Positions 1-14,506 of a stretch of 64,000 nt of DNA are shown in pieces. A model generated the notes under the pieces. That model was given only the letters and a program-made list of their open reading frames with translations, did no database searches and was not told the origin of the DNA. Source of the DNA: a virus (taxonomy: Duplodnaviria; Caudoviricetes); the IMG/VR virus record IMGVR_UViG_3300032227_001172, positions 166,692 through 230,691 of that record; one strand, given 5' to 3'. The position numbers and the translations under genes are program-made. The number at the start of each line of letters is the position of its first letter. The stretch's first letter is position 1.

Positions 1-139
1 CCGTGAAATCAAAGACAAAGGAACTTTGTTACTGGTAAACGATGAAACCGTAGGTTATCGTTCAATCTATCAACACAAAATCGTTGGAAATATTTTGTAT
101 CGTGAGGCAGGATTGATTCACGCAGACTAGAAATAGGGC

Positions 140-376
140 TTGACAATGACCAACTTTCCGCATATGATGGCTTTTGTTCTTACCACCCCAAAGGAAAACC
201 ATATGTTTGACTTCGACGACATGAATCGAATTCTGAATGAGCTGGCCGAACAGGGTATCGTAGAACCGATGGTCGAACCGATTGACGATCCCAGTGTGGA
301 AGTCAACTTTTGGGATTGGGCAGAGGTCGTGGGTGCTGTTGACGATTTTGTACCAGAGGAGTATACTAATGTTTAG
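140..376 (+). CDS. hypothetical acidic protein (likely start at the internal ATG after AAGGA)
   Basis: ORF track; RBS-like aaggaaa before MFDFDD. Confidence 0.6.
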   Translation: MTMTNFPHMMAFVLTTPKENHMFDFDDMNRILNELAEQGIVEPMVEPIDDPSVEVNFWDWAEVVGAVDDFVPEEYTNV

Positions 377-450
377 TGCAATTGCATTTGTAGTGGGATA
401 CGTTGGGTTGTTTTACATTACTACTATTGTAAGAGATTGAACACTCACCC

Positions 451-528
451 TAAACCCTTTGTGTGTAAGCACTTAGGGCAAACGGGGCGGGCCGGCCTTG
501 ACGTAAATCCTTTAGTAGTAAGGACTTA
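451..528. repeat. 78-bp double-palindrome element, copy 1
   Basis: taaaccctt-N7-aagcactta, 28-bp GC-rich spacer (centre ggcgggcc), taaatcctt-N7-aaggactta. Confidence 0.95.
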
Positions 529-584
529 TGTCCGATAGCAAATACCGTACCAAAAAAATCTTTTCTTTTTCTAAAATTTTCTGC

Positions 585-613
585 TTGACATCTAAAGTTT
601 TATCTGCTAAAAT
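585..613 (+). promoter_or_regulatory. sigma70-type promoter
   Basis: TTGACA-17-TAAAAT downstream of element copy 1 and an A/T tract. Confidence 0.75.
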
Positions 614-1005
614 GTCGATATAAGAGAAAGAGAAAGAGAAAGTGAATGATGAAAAGTGAAGAAGAAAAGCGTATCGAAGAGTATAACCAATTCATGGACG
701 AATGGGAAAAGCGTCCTAAGAATCGTGATCTGTATGGCAATAACTGCTATCGCCCCGATGAAGTGGCGTTGACGGATGAAGAGTACGAGATGTTTGGCTA
801 GGAGTAAATAAAATGGATAATCCAGAAATCAAACCAATTGAACCATGTCGAACCACCAAGCGTCGAAAGACTCGGTATGGTTCTGCTGGTCGTAACTATT
901 ATGGTGAGTTGAGAAGGTTTAGGGGCTATCGTGGCCCGTTGAAAAAAGATAGCTTGACAACCTAAAATTTTTCTGGTAGACTGCCGATATAAGAAAGAAA
1001 GGAAG

Positions 1006-1329
1006 ATGATGAGTCACCCTGATCCGTGCTACGATCCCTATAACTCTTACGAGGATGATCATATGGCTACTAACTACAGCGATTACCACTACGATTACCA
1101 CGATGCTTTCTACGGAGAAGATAGTGCGAGCTATCATCCCGATGCAGACCATGAAGTTGCGTCACAGTTTGATGAAGAAGAGGAAGAGAATGAAGAATGG
1201 TCTGACGATTATAATGATAGTATGGATGGAGATCACGAGTCCGGCCTTGCGAGTGCGGGTTGGGGCTTGGACGAATCATATGATCCGTCATACGACCACG
1301 ACGACTACGATCACGGAGGAGATTGGTGA
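1006..1329 (+). CDS. very acidic D/E/Y-rich hypothetical protein
   Basis: ORF with aaggaag RBS; extreme Asp/Glu/Tyr/His bias. Confidence 0.7.
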   Translation: MMSHPDPCYDPYNSYEDDHMATNYSDYHYDYHDAFYGEDSASYHPDADHEVASQFDEEEEENEEWSDDYNDSMDGDHESGLASAGWGLDESYDPSYDHDDYDHGGDW

Positions 1330-1511
1330 TTATGTAGAATATTGTGGCAGTTGTGACATAAACAGATACACTTATTGATTTCTACTAATATTGTATTCCA
1401 TGCCATATGTTTGCCTATAAGTTGAATTACTCCATTTTTTTTATTAGATGGTTCTAGATGATGCCAAACTAGTGATCTAACGTCAGAATAGCCACAGAAG
1501 GAGAAAATTGA

Positions 1512-1718
1512 ATGAGTACGCACAGATTCTTTGATATCGTGGTCGAAAATGAAATGGGCGATATGCTTATTGATAAGGAATATGTTCTCGACTTGCCAGA
1601 ACATAATATGGATGATGCTGTTGACAGGCAAGAGTTTTTGGGTATCATGTTTGATAGTGTGATTGCTGCTAGTGGATTGAATATTTGTTCCTTTAGTTCT
1701 CAGGAGATTTTGGCATGA
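1512..1718 (+). CDS. hypothetical protein
   Basis: ORF with aggag RBS; stop overlaps next start. Confidence 0.65.
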   Translation: MSTHRFFDIVVENEMGDMLIDKEYVLDLPEHNMDDAVDRQEFLGIMFDSVIAASGLNICSFSSQEILA

Positions 1719-1945
1719 AGGTTGTTGTAACACATACTGATACTTTTGGTGGCGAACCTAACTATGGCTGGGTCAAAAGTTTTGATTTCGTTGCTCATAA
1801 TGATGCCTCTCAGCGAAGTATTGTTCGCACAGCAAAGGCTGCTGTTGGTATGACAGGCGTAAGGTCTACGACCTATGATTATGGTGATAGTTTGACTATC
1901 AAGCCTCGTGGATATAATCAAGTTATTTTCGTAGATTTCGAGTAA
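1715..1945 (+). CDS. conserved small phage protein (TDTFGGEPNYGWV motif)
   Basis: ORF coupled to upstream gene; ends 9 nt before element copy 2. Confidence 0.7.
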   Translation: MKVVVTHTDTFGGEPNYGWVKSFDFVAHNDASQRSIVRTAKAAVGMTGVRSTTYDYGDSLTIKPRGYNQVIFVDFE

Positions 1946-1954
1946 GCCTCGTCG

Positions 1955-2032
1955 CAAACCCTTTGTGCATAAGCACTTAGGGCGAGCGGGGCGCGCCGAA
2001 TTTGACGTAAGTTCTGAATCTACAACACTTTA
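1955..2032. repeat. 78-bp double-palindrome element, copy 2
   Basis: caaaccctt-N7-aagcactta / centre ggcgcgcc / taagttctg-N7-aacacttta. Confidence 0.9.
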
Positions 2033-2095
2033 GATCAAAAAAAATTTATTAAGTTCTTCTTGACTTTGGTCGATAAATGCAGTAGAGTAAGAGAT

Positions 2096-2266
2096 ATGAG
2101 CAAACGCAAGAAAAATATCGTGCTGAGTCTGAACGTACGTCCAGTTTGGGAATTGGGCAAGGGTCATAGCTGTCATCTTTCTGGTGGCGGTCAACATGAC
2201 AATCGTCCCAAAAAACTTAGGACTAGGGGAGATAAGAACCGTAACGCTATCGGTGATGGCTGGTAG
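2096..2266 (+). CDS. small basic protein (DNRPKKLRTR motif), paralog of 11055-11216
   Basis: In-frame ATG at 2096 just after a TTGACT-17-TAGAGT promoter; motif shared with second copy. Confidence 0.7.
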   Translation: MSKRKKNIVLSLNVRPVWELGKGHSCHLSGGGQHDNRPKKLRTRGDKNRNAIGDGW

Positions 2267-2748
2267 TCTCTGCTAATCCTTCAGATTTGGGCTGATGGGT
2301 ATAGTCAGCCTAAAGTTAGAGCACTTGACTTGTCGATACTTATAGTATAGAATGGTACAGAAGGAGAGTTATTATGTTGGGTGATTTTATTCTGGTGTGG
2401 GTTTGGATGGGTGCTACTCTTTTAATGTTGGGTTTTGTCTACTTTCTCTCTATTGTAGGGGAAGTTTGGCAGAGAATAAATGAGTATGAGGCTATGAGGG
2501 CCAGGGGTTATACTCTTATGAAAAATGATAAGAATGATGATTTCTGGGTAGGATACGGGGATTGACCACTTAAACAAAATGGAGATACAGGGATGTATCA
2601 GTTTGATTTTATCAGTGTGGCTTTTGGGTATATTGCTGGTATTATTCTGTATGCTAGTATGTCAAATATCATGTATATGGAGGAAAGTGATGAAAGCGAG
2701 TGACTACATATTGTGGGGGTGTGTTTTGTTATTGGTTGCACTATGACG

Positions 2749-2826
2749 TATCTCCTTCATCTGTAAGGACTTACGTCGAGTTCGGCCCGCCCCGGAAAGC
2801 GTAAGTGCTTATGCTGCAACACTTTA
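2749..2826. repeat. 78-bp double-palindrome element, copy 3
   Basis: tatctcctt-N7-aaggactta / centre ggcccgcc / taagtgctt-N7-aacacttta. Confidence 0.9.
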
Positions 2827-2923
2827 CGTCAATTCTTACAATCTCGTAAGATTTAAGTTTACCCCTTGCATTAGACGATAATAGATAGTAGAATACGATA
2901 TAGAAGAAAGGCAAGGGTAAGAC

Positions 2924-3187
2924 ATGAGTCCAGATGGAAGCTATAACGGTTATGCAAACTATCAAACGTGGAATGTTTGCTTGTGGCTGAGTAATGATGA
3001 ACTTCTGTATAGTATAGCTAAACAGTGTATCTCTTACGACCATTTCAGAATTTTGATTCGTGAGATTTTCGAGAAAGATAATCTGAGATTTGAAACTCCC
3101 GATGGTGTGGCTTGGAATGATAGCGGCATCAACATTGCCGAAATGGTAGAGTATTGGGAAGAAAATTTTTCTAAAGTTCCCGCTTGA
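2924..3187 (+). CDS. conserved phage protein (YNGYANYQTWNVCLWLSNDE motif)
   Basis: ORF; N-terminal motif resembles a common phage hypothetical family. Confidence 0.75.
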   Translation: MSPDGSYNGYANYQTWNVCLWLSNDELLYSIAKQCISYDHFRILIREIFEKDNLRFETPDGVAWNDSGINIAEMVEYWEENFSKVPA

Positions 3188-3218
3188 CAAGTGTCGATAT
3201 ATAGTGTAGACTTAGCGT

Positions 3219-3665
3219 ATGGATGTTTTGACTAGTTTTCAATTTGAAAGGTTTCTTATGAACGATGTGATTTTGTTTGGTTCGATTCTTGCGGCTGTTG
3301 CCGCTGCTGTTGTTAGTTTTGTCTTCTATTCGGTCTATGGTGGATCGAAGGCTAGTTTGGTGAATGCCCAAGAGGGTCAGATTTTCAATTTTGAATATGA
3401 ACAGCCTTTGCATGGTGAATCAAAGCGTTTCCTTGCTAAGGTGATTGAGCCGGTTTATACTCTGAGTGATTCGTCCATCAAGGCTCTGAATCGTCGTAGT
3501 CGATATCGTAGAAATGATCCAGTGTTTCAGCGGACAAGTCATCTGGTGACTTGTCAGACTCCTGACGGTAAGATTCGCCAATTCTATGCTGAGAGAGTTA
3601 AGAATTGCCGAAAGCCTTTGCTGGCTGGTGCTCTCTTTAAGAGTGGTGTTGCTAGTCTGCTCTAA
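3219..3665 (+). CDS. membrane-anchored hypothetical protein, possible WYL-like C-terminal domain
   Basis: Hydrophobic N-terminal helix; C-terminal RQFYAERV resembles the WYL-type RxF motif. Confidence 0.55.
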   Translation: MDVLTSFQFERFLMNDVILFGSILAAVAAAVVSFVFYSVYGGSKASLVNAQEGQIFNFEYEQPLHGESKRFLAKVIEPVYTLSDSSIKALNRRSRYRRNDPVFQRTSHLVTCQTPDGKIRQFYAERVKNCRKPLLAGALFKSGVASLL

Positions 3666-3701
3666 AAATTAGCAGTCTCTGCCTACTAGTTGACCAACCC
3701 C

Positions 3702-3779
3702 TAACCCTTTGACACCAAAGGACTTAGGGCGAGGTCGGCCGGCACGCTTCGTCGTAAGTCTTTATATGTCAACGCTTTA
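3702..3779. repeat. 78-bp double-palindrome element, copy 4
   Basis: taacccttt-N7-aaggactta / centre ggccggca / taagtcttt-N7-aacgcttta. Confidence 0.92.
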
Positions 3780-3808
3780 CGACAATTTTTTTTATCAAGT
3801 TTTTCCTC

Positions 3809-3837
3809 TTGACAAGCCGATAATAGTAGTGTAGAAT
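3809..3837 (+). promoter_or_regulatory. sigma70-type promoter with CGATA in spacer
   Basis: TTGACA agccgataatagtagtg TAGAAT (17-bp spacer, extended TG). Confidence 0.85.
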
Positions 3838-3862
3838 ACAAGGAATCAAAAGGAGAAAGAAG

Positions 3863-4126
3863 ATGCTATTTAAGCCTTATGCTTTGAGAGATTCTGTGAA
3901 GCGGACTGTGGAAGGTGATATGATTAGGTTTAGCGGTTACAGTGTTGGTGGTCGTCCATTCTGTATCTCAACCAAACTCAGCGATGCCAACGAGTGGCTG
4001 AATGGTGGATTGATTCAGAATTGCTTCCCGTATCTTGATGCTGATGATCGTGAGATTCTCAAAACGGGGTTTGATGCTCAGGATTGGGAAACGATGTTCG
4101 CAGGAACTAGGGAGGAAGAAGAATGA
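3863..4126 (+). CDS. conserved phage protein (LIQNCFPYLDADDREILKTG)
   Basis: ORF with aggag RBS downstream of promoter. Confidence 0.75.
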   Translation: MLFKPYALRDSVKRTVEGDMIRFSGYSVGGRPFCISTKLSDANEWLNGGLIQNCFPYLDADDREILKTGFDAQDWETMFAGTREEEE

Positions 4127-4581
4127 ATACCGATACCTATATGGTGATGAAGGGTAATAAAGTTGTAGGCTATGTGGAAGCATATAGTACCTATCATGCA
4201 CTGGCTATGGCCGAAAAGTTGTATGGGAAGAATTTGCTCATTGAGCGAATCTCCAATGTTTGTCCTGCCTAACCCTAGCGGGTCGGGCTGGATGGGTTTA
4301 GTCAGCCAATAGTCGGGACTTGACAAAGAGTCTTTAATAGAGTATATTGTGCAGAAAGGGAGAGAATTATGTTGACGAGTGATGAACGAGACGCTGTTTG
4401 TGGGTGTGTGGCTGATTTTGCTACTCGTTTGCTTACCGCTGCTACTATTGATGAGAAGTCTATGCACCAAGAACTAGATATTTTTTTTGAGTTCTTTTGT
4501 AAGGCTCTTGAGATTGCCGAAAGAGATGGGGCGGGTAAGTTCCGTGAGTCTATTGGGGCTAGTAATAACTAAGGGGATATC

Positions 4582-4761
4582 ATGAGAGTTTGTCCATGTG
4601 GGTCTGGCAAGAAAAGCTGGTGGGAAACTGATGCTCGTGGAATTCCACTGGGTAGGGTTTGTTTGGAGTGTTTGGATAAAAAGTTGAGTAAGTATAGGCC
4701 AGAAGTGTTGACCAACTCCAACTACTGTGCTGATGAACCTATTGAGGCAGAAGACTATTAA
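4582..4761 (+). CDS. small Cys-rich protein (CPCGSGK...CxxC), likely zinc-binding
   Basis: Hand-translated 59-aa ORF MRVCPCGSGKKSWWETDARGIPLGRVCLEC; below ORF-track cut-off. Confidence 0.7.
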   Translation: MRVCPCGSGKKSWWETDARGIPLGRVCLECLDKKLSKYRPEVLTNSNYCADEPIEAEDY

Positions 4762-4764
4762 TCG

Positions 4765-4842
4765 TAAGTCCTTATCCTTAAACAACTTAGGGATAGGGCG
4801 GGCGGCCGAATTTGATGTAAGTGCTTGTGTATCATAGGGTTA
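4765..4842. repeat. 78-bp double-palindrome element, copy 5
   Basis: taagtcctt-N7-aacaactta / centre gggcggcc / taagtgctt-N7-atagggtta. Confidence 0.92.
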
Positions 4843-4883
4843 CGTCAATGCTAAAAAATTTTTGGAATTCCTATAGATAGCTC

Positions 4884-4912
4884 TTGACAAGTGACGATAA
4901 TAGATGTATACT
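4884..4912 (+). promoter_or_regulatory. sigma70-type promoter positioned to drive the ncRNA array
   Basis: TTGACA agtgacgataatagatg TATACT. Confidence 0.85.
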
Positions 4913-4920
4913 TAGCACAT

Positions 4921-5484
4921 AAGCAGATGAGGGCCGCTGGCAGAATGATATCAAAGTAGCCACGGTTAAATGCAAGGCCGAGTATGGCATAACCCTATCT
5001 GTTTTATAATACAAAACTCGTGGGTCCATGCCTTGGACTAGGTTGGGTAACTCATTACGATAAGCATCGCATGTCGCGGCAGCGATGATGCTGACAGTGC
5101 CGGTTACGCACTGGATAGTAGTGCCAATCTATGGGGGATCGCGTCCTCACCACGTTATAATACAATGTGTAGGTTAAGCGTTAAGCAGCCAACGGTTGGC
5201 GGGAGTACTACCACAACCGTCCGTTAGACCAGCATAGGAAAGTGTGGGTAAAATCCCACCACATTGACAATACAACCAGTAGCCGCTTTGAAACAGCATG
5301 GTGATGAGATACTGATCATATCTCTAGGGACCAATGTCGTGGGCGGTTTCCAACGAGAGAGCCCCATTGGGAGGGTGGGTTTGAGGATCCCAACAACAAA
5401 CCTAACTAGCGTTGGAGCATAGAACCGGATCGTCAATGGTTCGCTGGTGATAAGCAGGGGTCGGATAGAAACCAAGTTTACTGG
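4921..5484 (+). ncRNA. array of four putative structured ncRNAs separated by AATACAA linkers
   Basis: No long + strand ORF; each unit closed by a terminal stem (4921-5004, 5019-5154, 5163-5266, 5276-5484) with internal hairpins. Confidence 0.7.
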
Positions 5485-5531
5485 CTGGGTTGGATAATGC
5501 GTGATACCGGACATTATTTGTAAAACTATCG

Positions 5532-5604
5532 CTGGATATAACTCAAATGGCAGAGTTCCACTCAGAGATGAGAGGAGTTACAGGTTCGAACCCTGTTATC
5601 TGGT
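5532..5604 (+). ncRNA. tRNA-like RNA with non-canonical anticodon arm (GAGA tetraloop)
   Basis: Acceptor ctggata/tatctgg, D arm actc/gagt, T arm acagg-TTCGAAC-cctgt; anticodon arm pairs only as tcc-a-ctca-GAGA-tgag-a-gga. Confidence 0.7.
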
Positions 5605-5809
5605 AAGTCGATCCATTAACAGCCGGTATACAATACAAAGGAAAAAAGATGAATAAAAACGAGGCGATCATTAAGGTTCTTAGGGTTTTAAGGAGCCAAT
5701 CGGCTGCTGTAAATAAACCTAATCGGGAAGAGGCATTGACTTTAGCAGAAGAGCATGGTATAACTGCTAAGGAATTGATTGACACTTGGGTGGAAATTTG
5801 TAGGAACAT

Positions 5810-6040
5810 ATGATGAACTGGCATTACGATAATCCTATTTTGAACGGTCAATATCTGTGTTGTGTTAAGGATTATTCTTTCCCCTTTCCTTTGTTCTGGA
5901 GTGTGGAGAATGGAGGTTGGGGTGAATGGTGGCATGGCGAACAAGATGATGGGTTGGTAGAATGGAATCAGTTTGACAACTCGTTAGTGGTGTGCTATAC
6001 TAGCTTTCAAGAAATTCCTATGCCAGAGGGTTGGAAATGA
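5810..6040 (+). CDS. hypothetical Trp-rich protein
   Basis: ORF track. Confidence 0.6.
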   Translation: MMNWHYDNPILNGQYLCCVKDYSFPFPLFWSVENGGWGEWWHGEQDDGLVEWNQFDNSLVVCYTSFQEIPMPEGWK

Positions 6041-6331
6041 TCTACTTAAATATTAATGAGATTGAGAGATTGGCCGAAATTGTGGCTGAACTGGTTAAGT
6101 TGGGCATGAGTGTTACTGCTGAACTCCGTGGGACAAAGTGGCATATTGAGGTAACTGAGTGATGAAAACTAAAACTCTTGAGCTGACCAAAGTAGAACTT
6201 AATTATCTGTATAATCTCGTTTGTGAAAATATAGAGCGCGGTGAGTATTGGGGAAATCAGAATCAGTTTATGAAGATGCAAGAACGTGTTTTTAATAAAC
6301 TGATGGACTGCGAAACAGAGGTGGCATCCTA

Positions 6332-6589
6332 ATGGAATGGATTAGTTTCCACGGGCCTCGTCGCCCTATTAATGGTCAAAAGATCATCTATTATGGTGAG
6401 CCTATTGGTGTGTGGCGTGGAAAGTATAGAATAAACTATAATGATCCTTTTTGTATTCACAATATTGATTGTGGTGAAGCTCCCGGTAATGTAGATTATT
6501 TCGACGCTCCTTGGTGGATGCCAGATGAGGGACAACCAAAACCACCACCACCAAAAGAACATTATCCAAAAGACTATCCTAGAGATTGA
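6332..6589 (+). CDS. hypothetical protein
   Basis: ORF with gaggt RBS. Confidence 0.6.
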   Translation: MEWISFHGPRRPINGQKIIYYGEPIGVWRGKYRINYNDPFCIHNIDCGEAPGNVDYFDAPWWMPDEGQPKPPPPKEHYPKDYPRD

Positions 6590-6705
6590 AATTATGAAAA
6601 CTATCAGTAATATTTGTGATTGTGGTATGTGCAGTGAAGCATATTACACTATAGATAAGTACGGTGTGTGCTGGAGTATGTGCAGCGAGTGTGGTTGGTG
6701 GTACT

Positions 6706-6783
6706 TAAACTATTGATACATAAGAACTTAGGGCAAGGTTGGCCGGCCCCGTTCGTCATAAGTCCTTACTACTAAAGACTTTA
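6706..6783. repeat. 78-bp double-palindrome element, copy 6
   Basis: taaactatt-N7-aagaactta / centre ggccggcc / taagtcctt-N7-aagacttta. Confidence 0.92.
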
Positions 6784-6863
6784 CGTTTAAAAAGATTTTT
6801 TCAAGATTCCTCCTTGACTTGTCGATAATAGTAGTGTAAGATGGTGGTAACACGAAAGGGAAT

Positions 6864-7109
6864 ATGATGACTGTTGCTGAATTGATTGAAGAACTGAACA
6901 AGCTACCCCAAGATATGCTTGTGCTTGTGCCGGGTTATGAGGGTGGGTACGACAATATCGAAGTTCAGAGGAATGGGGCTGTTGTTGTGGACGATAATTG
7001 GGATGGACAAGAAAAGTTTTATTGGTATAATGGGCGACACGCCTCATACTACAAGGATATGGAAGGCGACGAGCCTACGTCATGCGTTGTTATCGGGAGA
7101 GGTAAATGA
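6864..7109 (+). CDS. conserved small phage protein (MTVAELIEELNKLPQD...GYEGGY)
   Basis: ORF after promoter 6814-6842. Confidence 0.75.
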   Translation: MMTVAELIEELNKLPQDMLVLVPGYEGGYDNIEVQRNGAVVVDDNWDGQEKFYWYNGRHASYYKDMEGDEPTSCVVIGRGK

Positions 7110-7615
7110 AAACGGTTGAAAAACACGCCGAAGTACGATTTCATCTACTAAACGGGCCTAATTATAAAAAATGGCAGGTAAACGTGATGCAAGGAAAGAA
7201 AAGGGTTGACCAATTTTATGTAGACCCTACAGAATACCAGTTAGAGATGCGTGGTTGCAAGCTGGTAAATAAGGTAGCTAGGGCGAAATGGGTCAATAAG
7301 AAACAGAAAAAGAATGTGAGTGGATGGGTTCAGTGTGAAGAAGTTATGCTTCGCAAGGATTTTTATCCCTCTTTGCCTATTGACAATCTTGAGAAGTTGT
7401 ATTATAATCCCATTCGTGATGTTCACTGGCGACGAGAGAGTGATTGTGGTGAACATGTTTGGGATAACAGTGAGTATGACACCTTAGTTACCGATGGGCG
7501 ACAGGTTCATATTCTGGAAGAACGTAACGGAAATTTTGACGGTATTTACGAGATAGACCCTAAGTATACAGAAAGTTTTGGAATTTATGATCAAGATCGA
7601 AATGAGCGTTCGTGA
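7106..7615 (+). CDS. hypothetical phage protein
   Basis: 169-aa ORF coupled to upstream gene. Confidence 0.7.
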   Translation: MKTVEKHAEVRFHLLNGPNYKKWQVNVMQGKKRVDQFYVDPTEYQLEMRGCKLVNKVARAKWVNKKQKKNVSGWVQCEEVMLRKDFYPSLPIDNLEKLYYNPIRDVHWRRESDCGEHVWDNSEYDTLVTDGRQVHILEERNGNFDGIYEIDPKYTESFGIYDQDRNERS

Positions 7616-7961
7616 GTCGCTGAACATGATTGCAAACGGTTGCAGTCTCGATATGTTCGATAAGATTGTGTGTGCATTGGAAGTGGCACTTGGTGTGAAT
7701 CAGCGTTGCATGGTAACGATCACCGGAGGCTTGACTCTGGACAATCGTATTCATTCCATAAAGGCTATTCGTCAGCACACAGGATGGGGTCTCAAAGAGG
7801 CCAAGGATTGGAGCGACTATCTGGTTGGCGGCTGGCATTACGATAAATTCGTTCCTGCCAAGCCCGGAGCCAAACAGAGCATCACTCTGAAAACGCCAGA
7901 AGCGGCAGAGGCACTGCTGCGTGATCTGGTTGGGCTGGGTTGTGAGGGTTATCTCTCATGA
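7578..7961 (+). CDS. ribosomal protein bL12 (L7/L12) C-terminal-domain-like protein
   Basis: RIHSIKAIRQHTGWGLKEAKDW matches the bL12 CTD signature KIxVIKxVRxxTGLGLKEAKxxV. Confidence 0.7.
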   Translation: MEFMIKIEMSVRESLNMIANGCSLDMFDKIVCALEVALGVNQRCMVTITGGLTLDNRIHSIKAIRQHTGWGLKEAKDWSDYLVGGWHYDKFVPAKPGAKQSITLKTPEAAEALLRDLVGLGCEGYLS

Positions 7962-7963
7962 CC

Positions 7964-8041
7964 TAAAGCCTTGTCCCTAAAGAACTTAGGGCGAGGCGGG
8001 CCGGCCGAATTTGATGTAAGTCCTTATCAGCAAACAACTTA
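7964..8041. repeat. 78-bp double-palindrome element, copy 7
   Basis: taaagcctt-N7-aagaactta / centre ggccggcc / taagtcctt-N7-aacaactta. Confidence 0.95.
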
Positions 8042-8236
8042 GGAAAAAGAAAAAATTTTTGAGGTTCACTCAAGTGTAGACTTGACAATGACGATACTAT
8101 ACTGTAGAATGATAGAACAAGCGAGACAAGTGGCTGCCCAAGAAGCCAACATAAGAAACCTTCTGGGCAGACTTGACAAGCGGTAATCGGTTGTGTATAC
8201 TGATTATGTTGGGTATGACTACTTTTACTTTGGAGG

Positions 8237-8503
8237 TTGATTATGAAGGCTTTTAGTTTCAACGTGACGATTGCTGCCGATGGTCTTGATTGCGAAGTGA
8301 TTGAGGATACGATTCGTGAGGCTCTGTCCTCTGGTCTGCCTGAAGAAACTCTGGCTCTTGTCAAGGCAGATGGTGTGAAGGAGTATAGTGAGCAAGGTTG
8401 GAAGGTTGCTCGTAATCGTAAGTTCGGTATCGGTGTCAAGGAAGCCGGTGACGGTCACAAGGCCAAGGCAACCAAGAATGTTACCGAGGAGGCTGTTGCC
8501 TAA
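8237..8503 (+). CDS. hypothetical protein
   Basis: ORF with ggagg RBS. Confidence 0.7.
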   Translation: MIMKAFSFNVTIAADGLDCEVIEDTIREALSSGLPEETLALVKADGVKEYSEQGWKVARNRKFGIGVKEAGDGHKAKATKNVTEEAVA

Positions 8504-8511
8504 TCAAAAAA

Positions 8512-8790
8512 CTGGACTATGCCAGTATAAAGGGCTAACGCCCCACCGATAAGAGTGATAACATTCGTCGGATGAGATTTTAGGCATAGTGCGGCGGGGT
8601 CAAACCCGCGTAATGATGGTTAGTTGCAAGACCAAAAGGTGCAACTTAGAGGGTCTAACCAACCAGATAAGTCGGGTGGTTCCGTCGAAGTTATCGACCT
8701 CTAGCGTATATTACTAATGACGATGGTAAGACGATAACGCCATCAAACCGTAATGCCTACATGGGACGCCATGTGGGCTTGCGGCGTTGA
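8512..8790 (+). ncRNA. putative structured ncRNA(s) upstream of tRNA-Arg
   Basis: ORF-free stretch with successive stems: actatgcc/ggcatagt, agttgca/tgcaact, tagagg/cctcta, gcctacatgg/ccatgtgggc. Confidence 0.55.
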
Positions 8791-8814
8791 GTGGGTATGT
8801 TATAATAGACACGC

Positions 8815-8886
8815 GGCCCCATAGTTAAATGGATATAATAAGTGACTTCTAATCTCTAGTTGCAGGTTCGATTCCTGCTGGGGCTA
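8815..8886 (+). tRNA. tRNA-Arg(TCT)
   Basis: Cloverleaf; loop CTTCTAA; T arm gcagg-TTCGATT-cctgc. Confidence 0.9.
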
Positions 8887-8891
8887 TTGTT

Positions 8892-8965
8892 GGGGGTGTA
8901 GATCAATTGGTTAGATCGCTAGCTTGTCACGCTAGAGGTTGCGGGTTCGAGTCCCGTCACTCTCG
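8892..8965 (+). tRNA. tRNA-Asp(GTC)
   Basis: Cloverleaf; ctagc-TTGTCAC-gctag. Confidence 0.93.
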
Positions 8966-8972
8966 TTTGTCG

Positions 8973-9050
8973 TAAACCCTTACTGTATAAGCACTTAGGG
9001 CAAATGCGGAGGGCCGGGGTCGTCGTAAGTCCTTATGTCACAACAACTTG
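8973..9050. repeat. 78-bp double-palindrome element, copy 8
   Basis: taaaccctt-N7-aagcactta / centre ggagggcc / taagtcctt-N7-aacaacttg. Confidence 0.93.
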
Positions 9051-9130
9051 CATCAAGAATAATTTTTTGAAGTTTTTCGCTTGACTATGCCGATACTATA
9101 GTGTAGAATCGGTAGACACAGGAGAAGAAC

Positions 9131-9835
9131 ATGAAAACTGCTGATGGTAATGATAAGTTGGGTAAGGGTTGCATTGTGGTTTCGCGTCCGGTTGGCGATA
9201 CTTGCCCGCCCGATTGCGACTATCTTGGAAACGGCTGCTATGCCGAAGCTACTGAAAACCAGTATAAAAATGCTCGCACTGCCGGGTTTGCTAATGTCAT
9301 AACGGAAAAGAATAAAATCCGTGCTATGATTCTGGAAGCAAAACGTCGTGAGAAGTCTATCCGTTGGCATGAACGTGGCGATTGGTTTCTCAATGGCGAA
9401 CTTGACCTAGACTATGTTGCTAATGTAACGTGGGCTTGTGAGAGTATTCTTGCCGATGGTGATACGTTGCCCGATATGTGGTTTTATACTCATATCTATG
9501 ATTCTCGGCTTGTGAGTCTGGAAAAGTATATGAATGTATATGCTAGTGTGCATGACGATAACGATATGGGAGAAGCACTATCACAGGGTTTCAAGCTGTT
9601 CGCATGGTGTGACAGCGATATGAAGATTGCTCCGAAGCGTCCTAAGAGCAAAGCAAAAGCCGAAGCATGGCGACAAGCACTGCCGAAGCTGGTGGTTCTT
9701 AATGCCACAAAGTTTGTAGTATGTCCCGAAATTCGTCGTGGTCGTTCGGAAATCACTTGCACTGGCACTAAAGATAGTATATCATGTGACTTGTGTGTTC
9801 GTGGTTTGGCTAATGTTTTGTTTCCAGCCCATTGA
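9131..9835 (+). CDS. GP88-like protein (radical-SAM-like Cys cluster)
   Basis: TCPPDCDYLGNGCYA, IRWHERGD, WFYTH and C-terminal CxxC motifs. Confidence 0.7.
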   Translation: MKTADGNDKLGKGCIVVSRPVGDTCPPDCDYLGNGCYAEATENQYKNARTAGFANVITEKNKIRAMILEAKRREKSIRWHERGDWFLNGELDLDYVANVTWACESILADGDTLPDMWFYTHIYDSRLVSLEKYMNVYASVHDDNDMGEALSQGFKLFAWCDSDMKIAPKRPKSKAKAEAWRQALPKLVVLNATKFVVCPEIRRGRSEITCTGTKDSISCDLCVRGLANVLFPAH

Positions 9836-10410
9836 AAGGAATAAAAATGAGCTACGTTGGATTGTATGATGATGCAGGAAGTAAGAATGCTTTCTATATT
9901 ATCAAAGACAAAAAGATTAACCGTAAGCGGGTGGGTTTTAAAGAGTTTGAGAATGAGCAAGAGGCTAAGTTTGCCCATCGTGTTCAGTCTCATTTGGCTC
10001 AGTTTGATTTGGCCCCTATGGTATATGGGGATGTTGGTATGATTCGTAGGCATGATGGTGAAATGACTTGTTATGGTTATTTGACCGAAGTTGCTCGACC
10101 CATGCCAGTATGTCACGATGACGAATATTGTGATGGTGAATGTTTTGAGAGTAGTTGTAAGAATGGTATTGCTATCATGGGAATAGTATCTGATTTAGAT
10201 GAGCATGGTTTATCGTACAATGATGCTCATAGAGGAAACTTTGGTTATGTTCGACGTAAAGGGTCGTGGGTTCCGGTTGTGATTGACCTTGGGATTGAGA
10301 GTTTTAGTGACTGGGATGAAGATATTTATGGGAAGTTCGATTATGATAAGTACGACTATGATAATGAATGTAATTGTGTTTACTGCCAAAAATTTAGAGA
10401 CAGAGGATAA
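9832..10410 (+). CDS. atypical protein-kinase-like protein, paralog of 57610-58164
   Basis: GFKEF (catalytic Lys), DAHRGN catalytic loop, IDLG. Confidence 0.65.
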   Translation: MKGIKMSYVGLYDDAGSKNAFYIIKDKKINRKRVGFKEFENEQEAKFAHRVQSHLAQFDLAPMVYGDVGMIRRHDGEMTCYGYLTEVARPMPVCHDDEYCDGECFESSCKNGIAIMGIVSDLDEHGLSYNDAHRGNFGYVRRKGSWVPVVIDLGIESFSDWDEDIYGKFDYDKYDYDNECNCVYCQKFRDRG

Positions 10411-10412
10411 TT

Positions 10413-10643
10413 ATGGCAAAGTATTATATCAAATCTGGAACACTAGAACTAATTTATTCCTGCAACAAATGTCCAAGAGATGCTGCGATGGATGCTATAT
10501 GGGAAATAAATGATTATGATACACTAGATGAGTATATCTATCTTGATGAACGTGGATATAAAGACTATACAAATGCTGATGGATTAACTTGTGTGTTACA
10601 TACTACCCATATTCTAAAAGACGCCGGATGGACTTTGGAATGA
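10413..10643 (+). CDS. hypothetical protein
   Basis: ORF with gagga RBS. Confidence 0.65.
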   Translation: MAKYYIKSGTLELIYSCNKCPRDAAMDAIWEINDYDTLDEYIYLDERGYKDYTNADGLTCVLHTTHILKDAGWTLE

Positions 10644-10652
10644 AGCTAACCG

Positions 10653-10730
10653 CAAACCCTTACTGCGTAAGCACTTAGGGCGAGCGGGGCCGCCCGGCTT
10701 TGACGTAAGTCCTTAGCCCACAACACTTTA
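10653..10730. repeat. 78-bp double-palindrome element, copy 9
   Basis: caaaccctt-N7-aagcactta / centre ggccgccc / taagtcctt-N7-aacacttta. Confidence 0.93.
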
Positions 10731-10768
10731 GAGCAAATCCAAAAATCTTCTAAAGTTTCTACGCCGGA

Positions 10769-11182
10769 TTGGTCGATAATATAGGTATGAGAACGACACG
10801 CATATCAACGAGGGGTGAGAGGATGATCCAGTGGGTTGGAATTGTGATTACGATTTTGGGTCTGGCGTATACGGGAATCAAAGATTATCAAAAAGGTGAT
10901 ATAAAATTCCCTCCTATGCCTCAGAAACCGGTCTTGACAAAGGTAGTTTATCCGGTACAATACTGTCTGATGGCTTACGACCCTAATGTTGACAAAGTTT
11001 TTTACCTACACGAAAATGGACAATGGCATGATTACGCTCCACAACAACGACGATATGAGGCCCAAACGCAACCATATCAAGCTCAAGGTTCGACCGCAGT
11101 GGCAGGTTCCTACGGGTCACAAGGAACACCGGCATACCGTTATGGACAATCGCCCCAAGCGTCAACGAACCCGATCCGCTGA
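10769..11182 (+). CDS. membrane-anchored hypothetical protein (likely start at MIQWVG)
   Basis: N-terminal hydrophobic helix; gagagg RBS. Confidence 0.55.
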   Translation: MVDNIGMRTTRISTRGERMIQWVGIVITILGLAYTGIKDYQKGDIKFPPMPQKPVLTKVVYPVQYCLMAYDPNVDKVFYLHENGQWHDYAPQQRRYEAQTQPYQAQGSTAVAGSYGSQGTPAYRYGQSPQASTNPIR

Positions 11183-11216
11183 AAATCGCAGGGCTTGCGA
11201 GAATGGGGACTATTGA
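11055..11216 (+). CDS. small basic protein, paralog of 2096-2266
   Basis: VRPQWQVPTGH...DNRPKRQRTR aligns with VRPVWELGKGH...DNRPKKLRTR. Confidence 0.7.
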   Translation: MRPKRNHIKLKVRPQWQVPTGHKEHRHTVMDNRPKRQRTRSAENRRACENGDY

Positions 11217-11232
11217 CTATAATACTTTGATT

Positions 11233-11305
11233 GCCGCTGTAGCTCAATTGGCAGAGCAACGCTTTTGTAAAGCGTAGGTTATCCGTTCGATTCGGATGAG
11301 CGGCT
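11233..11305 (+). tRNA. tRNA-Thr(TGT)
   Basis: acgct-TTTGTAA-agcgt; T arm present. Confidence 0.9.
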
Positions 11306-11306
11306 C

Positions 11307-11377
11307 TCCGGGATAGTGTAACGGTAGCACCAGAGATTTTGGTTCTCTTTGTCTGGGTTCGAATCCTAGTCCCGGAA
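11307..11377 (+). tRNA. tRNA-Gln(TTG)
   Basis: agaga-TTTTGGT-tctct; acceptor tccggga/tcccgga. Confidence 0.92.
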
Positions 11378-11387
11378 TTGTAAATAT

Positions 11388-11459
11388 TGTCCGATAGCTC
11401 AACGGTAGAGTAGGCGGCTGTTAACCGCTTGGTTCTAGGTTCGAATCCTAGTCGGACAG
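11388..11459 (+). tRNA. tRNA-Asn(GTT)
   Basis: ggcgg-CTGTTAA-ccgct. Confidence 0.92.
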
Positions 11460-11462
11460 CTT

Positions 11463-11549
11463 GGAATCTTGGCCGAGTGGTTTAAGGCAGCGGTTTACTA
11501 AACCGTCGAGGGTTAAAATCCTCCGTGGGTTCGAATCCCTCAGATTCCG
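11463..11549 (+). tRNA. tRNA-Ser with unusual ACT anticodon
   Basis: gcggt-TTACTAA-accgt, long variable arm, G discriminator. Confidence 0.88.
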
Positions 11550-11600
11550 CTAAAGATTCTCTTGACAACAGACGATAACTATGGTATCATCGAACAACAC

Positions 11601-11676
11601 GGGGCGTAAGGTAAGCCGGTTGCATCCGACACTCTTATAAGGTGTTCATAGGTCTGTTCGACTCAGACACGCCCTA
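11601..11676 (+). tRNA. tRNA-Ile(TAT)
   Basis: acact-CTTATAA-ggtgt; T arm gtctg-TTCGACT-cagac; atypical D arm. Confidence 0.8.
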
Positions 11677-11707
11677 TTCGGAGGCTGACGATTGAGTTAC
11701 GATGGCT

Positions 11708-11779
11708 GGCCCTATAGTCTAACGGCTAGGACGACAGCCTTTCACGCTGTAGATTGGAGTTCGATTCTCCATAGGGTCA
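11708..11779 (+). tRNA. tRNA-Glu(TTC)
   Basis: acagc-CTTTCAC-gctgt. Confidence 0.92.
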
Positions 11780-11818
11780 CTTGACAACAAAGGAAAGTTC
11801 CGGTATACTGTAAAACAC

Positions 11819-11891
11819 GGGTCATTAGCTCAGTTGGTAGAGCAAGGAGCTTTTAACTCTTTGGCCGTAGGTTCGAGTCCTACATGACCCA
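11819..11891 (+). tRNA. tRNA-Lys(TTT)
   Basis: aggag-CTTTTAA-ctctt. Confidence 0.93.
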
Positions 11892-12124
11892 CTTGACAGT
11901 TTTGGTTGCTAGATATAGACGAGATAAGAAAGGGAGTAAAATATGAGATATGAAGATTACTATGATGGCTACAACTATAACTATGACGAACTAGTAGAAG
12001 ATACTGAAGATCTTGGTCTGGATGAAGAACCTTGGATGCAAGATGCCGAGAACGAAGATGATGAAGTTCCGTCCTATGGTAAAAATTACTATCCTTGTAT
12101 TGACGACGAAAACGAATAATTTTT

Positions 12125-12206
12125 GTGTGTGCTTCTAGGTGGGACTAGAACCTAATATATTATCTTTTCATGTAACGGGTTGTTGGTTCAAATCCAACCA
12201 CACACT
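12125..12206 (+). ncRNA. tRNA-like element (intact acceptor and T arm, no anticodon arm)
   Basis: gtgtgtg/cacacac stem; gttgg-TTCAAAT-ccaac; ttctag/ctagaa hairpin at D position. Confidence 0.6.
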
Positions 12207-12208
12207 TT

Positions 12209-12712
12209 ATGAATACTTTTCAGCAAGAGCTTGATGATTTCCGGCGTACTCCAGACGGTAAAATCATTCAAGGTGCTGCTCATACTAGCCGGATATTAAA
12301 TCACAAATATAGAAATAGTGTGATTATCAAGGCTATCTGTTCTCTGCGTAAGATTGAGAATGATTTTGATAGTATTGCTTGTTGTGGCGTAAGTGGTTTG
12401 ATGGTAGTACCACAGATTGCAGAGATTCTGAATAAGAATATTATTATCGTTCGTAAAGGAGAACGAAGGTACAGCGAATTCTTTATCGAAGGCGTTGCTC
12501 CATCTAGTTATGTGATTGTAGACGATTTGATTTGTTCGGGCGGAACGGTTAAGCGAATTATGAGTAATATTCATGATGATGTTCCGAAAGCAAAATGTAT
12601 TGGTGCATATTTCTATATGGGTGAGGAGTGTGCCTACAATGCTTCAAATTCTAAACTTTTTGAGAAGCAGTTTGGGACAGTTCTTCTAAATCCTTACCAG
12701 CTAACGACTTAG
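12209..12712 (+). CDS. type I phosphoribosyltransferase
   Basis: PRPP-binding loop VIVDDLICSGGT. Confidence 0.85.
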   Translation: MNTFQQELDDFRRTPDGKIIQGAAHTSRILNHKYRNSVIIKAICSLRKIENDFDSIACCGVSGLMVVPQIAEILNKNIIIVRKGERRYSEFFIEGVAPSSYVIVDDLICSGGTVKRIMSNIHDDVPKAKCIGAYFYMGEECAYNASNSKLFEKQFGTVLLNPYQLTT

Positions 12713-12764
12713 GGCGAGGCCGGCCGGCCCCGGTCGCCATAAGTCCTTATCTGACAACCACTTA
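12687..12764. repeat. 78-bp double-palindrome element, copy 10
   Basis: taaatcctt-N7-aacgactta / centre ggccggcc / taagtcctt-N7-aaccactta; overlaps PRTase 3' end. Confidence 0.93.
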
Positions 12765-12864
12765 GGATTAGTATTTTTTTTCAAGATACCCCCTTGACAT
12801 AGCCGATACTAGAGTGTAGAATCGAAAGACGTAACGAAGGTTCAGTAACACGAAAGGATAGATT

Positions 12865-13812
12865 ATGCCTGCTATGGTTGAAAAGATGATGTTCGTTGGT
12901 GCCACCCCTTGGCATGGTGAAGGTACACAGTTGGATGAAAATCCGTCGATCAGCGAAGCGATTACCGCTGCTGGTCTGGATTGGGAGGTTGGTACTAAAC
13001 CACTCTTTACGGCTGAAGGTACGGAGGTCAATGCAAAAGCGACCTATCGTAAAACCGACAGTCGTGTTCTGGGTGTGGTTGGTCCGCGTTATACTCCGCT
13101 CCAGAATCAAGATGCGTTCGATTGGTTCCAGCCATTTCTCGACGCAGGTGAGTGCCAACTGCACACTGCCGGTTCGCTCAGTGAGGGCGAGAAGGTTTGG
13201 GTGCTGGCTCAACTCAATCGTGACAACTGCGAGATCGTAAAGAACGACGAGGTGAGCAAGTTTATCCTGCTTTCCAACAGCCATGATGGCACAACGTCGA
13301 TTCGTGTTGGCTATACGCCGATTCGGGTCGTGTGTGTGAATACTCTTGCGGCTGCTCATAACAGCAAAGAGAGTTCGCTCATTCGGATTCGCCATACCCG
13401 CTCCAGCAAGACGAATCTCGACAATGTTCGTGATATCATGGATAATATCAATGCTCAGTTTGAAGCGACTGCGGAGCAGTATAGGTTTCTCGCTAGTCGA
13501 GACTTCAACCAGAATGACGTTCGCAAGTACGTCAAGGTTCTGCTGGGAATCGATAAGACTCCAGACGAGGATATCAAAACTCGTACTCGAAATATCATGG
13601 ACGAGATTTTGACTCTCGTTGAAGGTCCGAAACAGTCTGCTGTTGGCGTTCGTGGAACGTGGTGGGCTGCCTACAACGGCTTCAATGAATATCTGAACTA
13701 CAGCAAGGGTCGCACGGTGAGCAACCGACTCGACTCTCTCTGGTTCGGACAAAACGGAGTCGATAATCTCAAGGCACTCAATACCGCAGTTGAGTTTGCC
13801 AACGCTATCTAG
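12865..13812 (+). CDS. DUF932 family phage/plasmid protein
   Basis: PWHGEG, LDWEV, YTPLQN, LLSNSHDG, TPIRVVCVNTL, GTWWAAYNGFNEY motifs. Confidence 0.88.
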   Translation: MPAMVEKMMFVGATPWHGEGTQLDENPSISEAITAAGLDWEVGTKPLFTAEGTEVNAKATYRKTDSRVLGVVGPRYTPLQNQDAFDWFQPFLDAGECQLHTAGSLSEGEKVWVLAQLNRDNCEIVKNDEVSKFILLSNSHDGTTSIRVGYTPIRVVCVNTLAAAHNSKESSLIRIRHTRSSKTNLDNVRDIMDNINAQFEATAEQYRFLASRDFNQNDVRKYVKVLLGIDKTPDEDIKTRTRNIMDEILTLVEGPKQSAVGVRGTWWAAYNGFNEYLNYSKGRTVSNRLDSLWFGQNGVDNLKALNTAVEFANAI

Positions 13813-13840
13813 TCGCTCTCCTTTCGTGGTGCGTGGCAGG

Positions 13841-13880
13841 GGAAGCCGTCCCTCAGAAATGGGGGGCGGCTTTCTCTATT
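13841..13880 (+). terminator. rho-independent terminator
   Basis: aagccgtccctca-GAAA-tggggggcggcttt followed by pyrimidine-rich run. Confidence 0.75.
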
Positions 13881-13900
13881 TCTAAATATAGGAAATTACC

Positions 13901-13978
13901 TAAGTGCTTGACACATAAGGACTTACGACAAACCCGGCCCGCAAACTTTGTCATAAGTTTAAGATACCAAAGGACTTA
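13901..13978. repeat. 78-bp double-palindrome element, copy 11 (last)
   Basis: taagtgctt-N7-aaggactta / centre ggcccgca / taagtttaa-N7-aaggactta. Confidence 0.9.
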
Positions 13979-14506
13979 CGAACAAAAGGTAATGGACAGA
14001 CGGGAGGATAGACGATATACTGTATGTAAGTGCAATGGTGGCAATGGGTTAGGTTAAAATAGTAATAGAAAAGTAAAAATCTAATGATTATTGTATCGGC
14101 TAAAGTAGCCGGTTTGCTGGTCATGCTGATAGTCAGCCAGTAATTAGACCAACTAATGTGATGTAACTCTATGATTCTCAACACCTTGCGTCAAATAGTA
14201 ACAAGTGGTATACTATGGTTGTCGGCCACCAGAAGTATAGATTATACTATGATGATAATATGTCTCAACATAAGATATTATCATAGTCCCACCTAATCCT
14301 CTGGATTTGAGGTCGTGGAGATAGTCAGCAAAAATATGCCATCACTTGAGTTGTGCAGGGAAAAATGAGAATTAATGTAGAGATAAATAGTTCTGAGAAT
14401 TTTGACTATGAATATTTTATTGACTGGCTCAACGATCAGCTTAGTGACAGTTCTATGTGTGGTATGGATTCTTATGCTAGTATTGTAAAAATTATGGAGA
14501 CTGAAG

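Follow-up and report, generated by a model that had tools for sequence, protein, structure and literature searches.

Boundary elements with two palindromes in an array of expression cassettes of an uncultured 231-kb phage

The element array and its promoters

The DNA analysed here, which we call the window, is 64,000 nucleotides long and forms the final 64 kb of the complete 230,691-bp virus record IMGVR_UViG_3300032227_001172, the genome of an uncultured 231-kb phage. Between positions 451 and 13978 of the window lies a row of transcription units separated by copies of a palindromic element of about 88 bp; this boundary element, and the array of cassettes that it delimits, are the subject of the present work. 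A preliminary description of the interval had proposed that the cassettes are self-contained units composed of an element, an A/T tract, a promoter and cargo, a composition that our analysis bears out, the promoter being of the sigma-70 type. The window also encodes rIIA, rIIB and a DNA ligase, from which we first assumed a T4-type phage; this assignment was dropped because rIIA is only 26-37% identical to that of any cultured phage. Comparison with 50,697 cultured phage records gave zero matches, both for window positions 1-14000 (megablast) and for one element with its promoter (blastn), and the phage represents a lineage without a close cultured relative.

A repeat search of the window yielded an 82-nt family with ten copies (at 450, 1954, 3701, 4764, 6705, 7963, 8972, 10652, 12686 and 13900) and an additional inverted copy at 2744-2839. 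When a profile built from the window copies was searched against the whole genome with nhmmer, 17 elements were detected, all located between genome positions 161,269 and 180,673 (19.4 kb), and the element was absent from the rest of the 230,691-bp genome. The array starts at genome position 161,269, which is 5.4 kb ahead of the window, and the interval 451-13978 constitutes its right-hand two thirds. Eleven of the 17 elements are inside the window, nine direct and two inverted (those at 2744 and 13896 score higher on the minus strand); overall, about 85% of the element copies have the same orientation. The copies in the window are given below, one per line; the relatives mentioned there are five complete genomes of 228-244 kb (G001-G005) that share 70-95% nucleotide identity with this genome over the region and that form our comparison set.

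446..532, plus strand: boundary element, copy 7 of the 17 in the genome and first in the window (nhmmer, 72.4 bits; repeat family D1)
1949..2037, plus strand: boundary element (nhmmer, 72.1 bits)
2744..2832, minus strand: boundary element, inverted (nhmmer, 61.5 bits on the minus versus 41.1 on the plus strand); inverted in the five relatives, and moves together with two small membrane-protein genes at 2374-2746
3699..3784, plus strand: boundary element (nhmmer, 70.0 bits)
4760..4847, plus strand: boundary element (nhmmer, 63.2 bits)
6703..6787, plus strand: boundary element (nhmmer); alignments to all five relatives begin inside it, at 6722
7959..8045, plus strand: boundary element (nhmmer, 74.4 bits)
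8967..9055, plus strand: boundary element directly 3' of tRNA-Asp (8891-8966) (nhmmer, 76.4 bits)
10647..10735, plus strand: boundary element (nhmmer); the promoter after it is degenerate
12683..12768, plus strand: boundary element (nhmmer); the stop codon of a PRTase-like open reading frame (ORF) lies within it
13896..13982, minus strand: last element of the array, inverted (inverted in five of the six genomes; nhmmer); the GC content falls beyond it

The five relatives each carry 15-25 elements in a block of 19-22 kb, with a GC content of 40-47% against 30-35% around it. In the present genome the array is a compositional island as well, having a GC content of 42.6% versus 32.8% in the remaining genome, and a GC content at third codon positions (GC3) of 45% versus 21% for ORFs of at least 100 amino acids. 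This contrast is repeated in all five close relatives and is weaker in distant ones. A foreign gene pool could account for it, as could biased gene conversion or early genes with a host-like codon usage; the GC3 contrast suggests a cassette pool with a history or mutational regime different from that of the rest of the genome.

Promoter-like sites are more than twice as frequent in the region as in shuffled sequences (72 versus 32.5), and 18 of the 42 strict promoter matches on the plus strand of the genome fall within genome positions 165,874-179,485, which represent ~6% of the genome. In the right half of the array most elements are followed by an A/T tract, which resembles an UP element, and then by a TTGACA-17-TAgAaT promoter; nine of the 11 window intervals examined open with a recognisable promoter of their own. 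All eight promoters named in the preliminary description were recovered at exactly the coordinates given there, matching 9-11 of the 12 consensus positions, and are listed here together with a ninth.

585..613, plus strand: sigma-70-type promoter TTGACA-17-TAAAAT, with an A/T tract ahead of it
2060..2088, plus strand: promoter TTGACT-17-TAGAGT
2866..2894, plus strand: promoter TTGCAT-17-TAGAAT, past the inverted element (read from the sequence; repeat family D5)
3809..3837, plus strand: promoter TTGACA-17-TAGAAT
4884..4912, plus strand: promoter TTGACA-17-TATACT, driving non-coding cargo
6814..6842, plus strand: promoter TTGACT-17-TAAGAT
8082..8110, plus strand: promoter TTGACA-17-TAGAAT
9081..9109, plus strand: promoter TTGACT-17-TAGAAT
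12794..12822, plus strand: promoter TTGACA-17-TAGAAT

Cargo ends almost flush with the next element, as had been noted before: ORFs stop just before elements at 1945, 4761, 7961 and 10643, tRNA-Asp ends at 8966 with the following element starting at 8967 according to the profile, and the ORFs ending at 6716 and 12712 stop within an element. The view that the cargo is heterogeneous also holds. It comprises a DUF932 protein, a PRTase-like protein, DUF7227/GP88 and DUF7249 proteins and many small proteins without a family, along with nine tRNAs, a tRNA-like stretch (5532-5604) and conserved non-coding stretches.

Elements are also followed by leaders of other kinds. In the left half of the array (L101:13269-18691; window 533-640) the A/T tract and TTGACA promoter are replaced by a conserved leader of the form AGCAAATnCnATGCCAA ... 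TTGCAATC-17-TATAATGTCGATATAAGA, and in a distant contig (L087 / G007, 15-31 kb) the elements are followed by a conserved motif, TCTAATTACTGTACAAAAATACTTT, and no sigma-70-type promoter; this motif may be a promoter of a different class. Because the leaders behind it differ, the element is a module of its own.

Anatomy of the boundary element

The pattern ACTTAGGGC-N15-25-TAAGTCCTTA matched 82 stretches of IMG/VR contigs, and a profile then gave 441 copies, of which 352 are distinct; the consensus and the counts that follow refer to these distinct copies unless another number is given. The element is ~88 bp long with the ends TTGnCGTAA...TTACGnCAA, somewhat longer than the unit previously described, and its consensus is TTGnCGTAAanCcTTg-n5-nAAGnACTTAgGGCnaG-(GC-rich)-tTtGaCGTAAGTcCTTa-n5-cAAcnanTTACGnCA. 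It is built from two 27-bp palindromes, each consisting of two TAAGNNCTTA-like sites, placed around a GC-rich spacer whose length is fixed. Near-invariance is seen in the outer TAA/TTA, in the inner CTT/AAG and in the blocks ACTTA and TAAGT, and the seven positions between paired sites, together with most of the centre, are unconstrained. The geometry is rigid: the anchors are 22 nt apart in 346 of 346 copies, in both palindromes, and the anchor spacing over the centre measures 31 nt in 331 of 350.

In the window, the sites are confined to the array. The core motif AAGNACTTANGNC, with at most one mismatch, occurs 27 times in the window versus 4.05 expected; all 27 matches lie within 467-13982, and the distance separating paired sites is exactly 33 nt. 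The remainder of the genome shows no excess of solitary TAAGNNCTTA operators (five sites versus ~8 expected by our own estimate), and a cluster near genome 131-132 kb proved to be an unrelated coding repeat. Among 185,579 bacterial and archaeal genomes the motif pattern matched five times. Real elements were present in just one match, a 141-kb contig of a metagenome-assembled genome that is presumably a mis-binned related phage, and the remaining four matches are at chance level; an origin of the element in the host is therefore unsupported.

Such a dyad could act in RNA or in DNA. At the RNA level, the element, located at the 3' end of a cassette, would fold into a central helix with flanking hairpins and serve as a terminator, attenuator, processing site or 3' stabiliser, resembling T7 RNase III sites or the stem-loops of the promoter-early stem-loops (PeSLs) of T4-type phages, which have been shown to terminate transcription (PMC2839356). 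Its location fits such a role, being directly past stop codons and tRNA-Asp with no space for another terminator, and so does the fact that the motif gives the same RNA whichever way it is oriented; moreover, a long central hairpin (-29 to -30 kcal/mol; z -2.2 to -3.7) is predicted for several copies. However, we sought covariation in four candidate helices, and in all of them the paired fraction equals that expected from column composition (0.66 versus 0.67, 0.69 versus 0.72, 0.69 versus 0.70 and 0.64 versus 0.66). G-U pairs are not favoured over A-C, the top pairs by mutual information are all adjacent columns, reflecting alignment register, with long-range signal absent, and RNAalifold applied to the 11 window copies gave -2.8 kcal/mol with zero compensatory pairs. 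In the two flanking hairpins, mismatches predominate in the inner stems. Folding z-scores of whole elements range from +0.4 to -3.7, so that some copies fold like shuffled sequences (+0.40, -0.52 and -0.70), and a rigid 31-nt centre of free sequence is odd for a hairpin; a conserved central GC hairpin was considered and rejected, as the centre folds at -7.23 versus -7.15 kcal/mol for shuffles.

No stem is followed by a U-run, T-runs beginning 10-20 nt past the last dyad of the elements, and a terminator scan of positions 1-15000 found nine terminator-like sites, none of them on an element. The last cassette has, by eye, a GC hairpin and a T-rich run at ~13836-13880, before the last element, which the scan did not list. 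In Rfam (E up to 0.1, window 1-18000) only tRNAs and sub-threshold noise were found, and the elements were unmatched. We regard a mainly RNA-level role as unlikely, although it is the likeliest of the alternatives considered.

Rigid sequence and spacing, with pairing not above expectation, place the constraint on sequence and spacing and not on pairing, and this is what a protein-DNA interface would predict. The combination of invariant positions, fixed spacing and helices that do not covary therefore favours a DNA-level module to which a protein would dock on the two palindromes. The position of the element relative to the promoter is in line with this view. Over 343 copies, the interval separating the -35 hexamer from the end of the element peaks at 15, 24-26 and 33-37 nt, and the non-orthologous junctions within a single genome behave in the same way (in G002 the distances are 24, 33, 26, 36, 25, 36, 25, 15, 16 and 25). 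These steps of 10-11 bp suggest that element and promoter are kept on the same face of the helix. Fixed spacing is found here as it is in operator arrays, and a helical register to the promoter is suggested by classes of 15, 25 and 36 nt in counts that include orthologues.

How long the element has been maintained can be judged from four distant contigs (G006-G009), two of which were fetched whole and the other two over their first 40 kb. Their backbone beside the array is syntenic with genome 150-160.7 kb, with hits of 25-69% amino-acid identity, and ends in the same sigma-like gene, right after which the element array begins; their fetched arrays show zero protein similarity to this genome. 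The slot and the element are thus old, and the cargo has been wholly replaced. Taken with the invariant positions, this speaks for purifying selection on the element, beyond what recent spread or gene conversion can explain.

These observations bear on the idea of a selfish or neutral repeat that dispersed into intergenic spaces and serves no function in the phage, similar to miniature inverted-repeat transposable elements (MITEs) or repetitive extragenic palindromic (REP) sequences, or else of a topological insulator or gyrase site like the bacterial interspersed mosaic elements (BIMEs). The element is indeed small, non-coding and palindromic, it ends in inverted repeats (TTGnCGTAA...TTACGnCAA), indels of the element by itself occur, and supercoiling stress would be expected at its position between strong co-directional promoters. 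Nevertheless, the copies occupy one genomic slot and are not scattered, ~85% of them share one orientation, and the invariance of positions and spacing in phages whose backbone proteins are 25-69% identical points to purifying selection. In addition, flanking repeats of 3-6 nt, as expected for MITE target-site duplications, are not commoner than in shuffled pairs (4-mers, 0.238 versus 0.296), and no transposase is encoded: Y1_Tnp (PF01797), the marker of REP/BIME systems with REP-associated tyrosine transposases (RAYTs), gave zero matches in the genome. An explanation along these lines seems improbable to us.

Cassette exchange and relationship to known systems

The preliminary description held that cassettes can be exchanged, excised or reordered at the elements. 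Comparison of the six genomes supports exchange and reordering, in that junctions of gain, loss and relocation lie at elements and breaks are enriched there; it does not extend to the whole array, as the right half is collinear and about half of the breaks are elsewhere. In the right half (window ~2840-13900), gene order is largely shared by all six genomes (families 30-31, 32-35, 36-40, 41-43, 44 with tRNAs, 45-47, 48 with tRNAs and 49-50, 51). The left half is strongly shuffled, the neighbours of family 17 being different in every genome.

Five individual events could be placed at nucleotide resolution. In three relatives, a 153-bp insert made up of an element and a promoter is present at a site aligned to 9831..9834, after the stop codon of the preceding gene and ahead of the ribosome site of its neighbour; this clean indel indicates that the composite behaves as a single unit. 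A one-gene cassette (family 107) occurs in G002 and G005 and is missing from the other genomes, whose lone element matches the upstream copy leftward and the downstream copy rightward, so that the crossover zone, 19 nt long, falls inside the element. G004 contains a 1.8-kb insertion of two cassettes with elements at both borders. Past tRNA-Ser, at 11550..11560, there is an element-only indel: this genome lacks an element that is present in all five relatives, directly past tRNA-Ser in G003 and past an extra tRNA-Tyr in the other four, and retains the promoter at 11562. Finally, the unit at 2374-2839 lies between families 26 and 30 in this genome and three cassettes further left in the five relatives; its right switch of homology is within 2801-2840, inside the inverted element, and its left switch is near an internal promoter at 2325. 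As for this inverted element, the third in the window, a hint of inversion or exchange in one of its halves had been noted earlier; we find that the whole copy is inverted, and that the inversion is old and not recent, since the same inverted copy lies past orthologous genes in five relatives. As a separate observation, between families 45 and 46 G005, and only G005, has an extra AT-rich insert of 620 bp between a gene and its element (corresponding to window 9835).

Over all ordered genome pairs, 37% of the adjacencies with an element between the genes are broken versus 14% of those without one (odds ratio 3.6), counts that are not independent of each other. When every junction entered the count a single time and the six genomes served as reference in turn, the broken fraction was 0.30-0.51 versus 0.11-0.22 (p 0.0006-0.05). 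Synteny breaks therefore occur preferentially, not exclusively, at elements. Identity to the individual relatives also varies along the array, and different cassettes have different nearest relatives, but these differences amount to a few percent and were not taken as a sign of mosaicism.

The region had been called integron-like. Like an integron, it is a row of heterogeneous cargo in one orientation, each piece ending in an imperfect palindrome, and its content turns over between relatives. In contrast to integrons, however, which depend on the IntI integrase, the complete genome has zero matches to Phage_integrase (PF00589; controls positive) and to Resolvase (PF00239), and exchange here looks homology-driven; integron cassettes are promoterless and served by a single Pc promoter, whereas most cassettes here have their own; and in attC sites the structure is conserved while sequence and length (57-141 bp) vary, whereas here sequence and length are fixed and a conserved structure is unsupported. 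With tyrosine and serine recombinases and a Y1 transposase absent, promoters carried by the cassettes and an element of fixed sequence and length, the label does not apply as one of membership; on the defining features tested, membership fails for integrons, REP/RAYT systems and MITEs alike.

This leaves the question of whether a dedicated enzyme, a site-specific recombinase or nuclease, targets the element and makes it a functional analogue of the attC/IntI pair. The four-site dyad with its fixed geometry, the crossovers inside elements, the retention of the element over deep divergence with wholly turned-over cargo, and the gene for an ERCC4-type nuclease located 3.2 kb from the array start would all suit such an enzyme. 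On the other hand, matches to Phage_integrase, Resolvase and Y1_Tnp are absent from the genome, the crossover zones are in shared homology, as ordinary homologous recombination predicts, many rearrangements fall at promoters or in cassette interiors, the six genomes are collinear over the right half, and the promoter phasing points to a role in transcription. We consider this possibility highly doubtful. A related proposal, that the dyad is a recognition site of a phage recombination or nuclease activity which steers crossovers to the cassette borders, has a low probability in our estimation; a candidate for that activity would be the ERCC4-type nuclease beside the array, together with phage branch-migration proteins. 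An element active in this sense would represent an integrase-free functional counterpart of the integron that, in addition, couples every newly added cassette to a regulated promoter.

Among known systems, the closest match is with the PeSLs, described in the T4-type phages RB49/phi1, T4/PST and KVP40/nt-1 (Arbiol et al. 2010, PMC2839356; Comeau et al. 2014, PMC4122927). The analogy drawn with them in the preliminary description is apt with respect to both architecture and evolutionary behaviour. Both are composite intergenic modules containing an upstream dyad, an AT-rich tract, a sigma-70-like promoter and a Shine-Dalgarno sequence; both lie in a hyperplastic region of small non-essential genes (here 17 copies in 19.4 kb with variable cargo), in many copies and one orientation, with no dedicated recombinase known in either; and in both, the junctions of insertions, deletions and replacements between related phages are found in the modules. 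They differ in that PeSLs have a short GC stem-loop terminator and the present element is an 88-bp double palindrome of four sites for which a conserved fold is unsupported. Here, moreover, the distances between element and promoter are helically spaced, the host lineage is without a close cultured relative, and the whole array is a compositional island (GC3 45% versus 21%). The stem-loop of a PeSL acts as a transcription terminator just ahead of the promoter, and PeSL minicircles form through recombination between flanking modules; in the present array a dyad occupies the corresponding place, its folding is weak or variable, and terminator-like sites are absent from the elements.

Other systems share fewer features with the array. 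Lambdoid morons, which are independent promoter-gene-terminator units, are likewise self-contained accessory transcription units between genes and often deviate in base composition, but they are single and scattered and lack a common boundary sequence, whereas here 15-25 units with one boundary element share one slot. The stoperators of cluster A mycobacteriophages, which are temperate, are sites for the immunity repressor, present genome-wide as ~20-30 intergenic repeats of an asymmetric 13-bp sequence. As predicted for the boundary element, they are motifs bound sequence-specifically by a protein at many gene borders, with an orientation biased relative to transcription; unlike it, they have a known binder, are single sites spread over the genome and are unconnected to cassette shuffling. 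In the case of T7, RNase III cuts at RNA hairpins that contain a defined internal loop and are part of long polycistronic transcripts. They too are related dyads between successive genes of a transcribed block, but here the units have their own promoter and base pairing is unsupported by covariation.

Based on these comparisons, we favour the view that the array consists of PeSL-type regulatory cassettes in which an operator-like element has replaced the terminator stem-loop. The region would be part of a clade-specific hyperplastic, presumably early, region of expression cassettes. The element would act mainly at the DNA level, as a docking site for a sequence-specific protein, and the docked protein would control or insulate the downstream early promoter by activation, shut-off or a block to read-through. 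At the same time, the 15-25 repeats of 88 bp, along with similar promoters in one orientation, would provide portable homology at which the general recombination machinery of the phage could add, delete, split and relocate cassettes, insertions possibly occurring via excised circles. We think it fairly probable that the element combines these two roles, namely that of a putative protein-docking element controlling or insulating an early promoter and that of portable homology for cassette exchange.

It should be noted that several points weigh against this combined view. The central helix (positions 24-39 with 54-69) consists mostly of invariant bases and is uninformative either way, and because palindromic sites read alike on the two strands, a sequence-specific reader of RNA would possibly be compatible with the data as well. 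The designation of the region as early derives solely from the type of its promoters. The peaks of the distance distribution contain orthologous copies, and the phasing is therefore suggestive and unproven; in 29% of the copies the pattern used here recognises no sigma-70 promoter within 130 nt, and the copies in the left half are followed by the different, longer leader at looser distances. With regard to exchange, 83 of 178 broken adjacencies are at element-free junctions, and many rearrangements are at promoters or within cassettes; many of the element-free breaks lie at internal promoters, which are themselves conserved repeats (families D5-D14). Selection could also account for part of the enrichment, as breaks at the borders of transcription units are tolerated, and the gene-family map of the six genomes rests on a crude ORF heuristic.

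PeSLs have been known as simple terminator-promoter joints for the swapping of accessory genes, and the same logic is seen here in a clade of uncultured jumbo phages. What this array adds to the PeSL theme are features typical of a protein-binding site (contacts that do not vary, a set spacing and promoter phasing) and an element that has outlived a full turnover of its cargo. If a single regulator acts at all 15-25 boundaries, the array would be a plug-and-play platform on which an inserted gene is at once expressed, insulated and co-regulated. This would account for the rapid sampling of accessory genes by large phages, and would make the element a sequence tag for such gene pools in metagenomes.

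Cargo and genes next to the array

The following cargo units of the window deserve separate mention.

2374..2839, plus strand: cassette of two small genes and an inverted element, in a slot that differs from that in all five relatives
8815..8966, plus strand: cargo of tRNA-Arg and tRNA-Asp
11233..11892, plus strand: cluster of seven tRNAs with internal promoters at 11562 and 11781
12865..13812, plus strand: DUF932 protein, cargo of the last cassette, kept in all six genomes (Pfam E 9.7e-51)

Within the tRNA cluster, ARAGORN identified a tRNA-Ser with anticodon ACT (11463-11550) and a tRNA-Ile with anticodon TAT (11601-11676), the latter being absent from the results obtained with the Rfam tRNA model. 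The set of tRNAs is variable among the relatives, with Tyr, Trp and Ile gained or lost. Past the promoter at 4884, the non-coding cargo consists of the stretches 4905-5166 and 5413-5625; the first is 94-97% identical in three relatives, compared with ~80-85% for neighbouring genes, and the sequence between them (5167-5412) is replaced between genomes. This cargo ends in a tRNA-like structure at 5532-5604 (Rfam tRNA, 35.5 bits), and its remainder has zero Rfam matches and a fold z-score of -1.6. Further right in the window, 16660-16696 resembles the abiF RNA family below threshold (34 bits; gathering score 37).

Three genes next to the array are transcribed away from its start: one for a 224-amino-acid protein with weak similarity to sigma-70 region 2 (L101:12082-12756, minus strand), one for a 276-amino-acid protein with a helix-turn-helix-like N-terminus, a long stretch that by inspection resembles a coiled coil, and a weak match to a 'D5-like regulator' (L101:11277-12107, minus strand), and that for the ERCC4-type nuclease (L101:9558-10037, minus strand). 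The first two also adjoin the array in the four distant contigs. These neighbours may be candidate partners of the element or may merely reflect backbone synteny; we do not name the 276-amino-acid protein as the binder because an identity as a small terminase subunit would fit it just as well.

A second intergenic motif, TAGTCAGC, occurs on the plus strand at 2302, 4299, 14130, 14322, 16815 and 29815, six times versus 1.3 expected. It lies within a small stem-loop (GGCTGA...TCAGCC) ahead of internal promoters, which in its appearance looks closer to the classical PeSL stem-loop.

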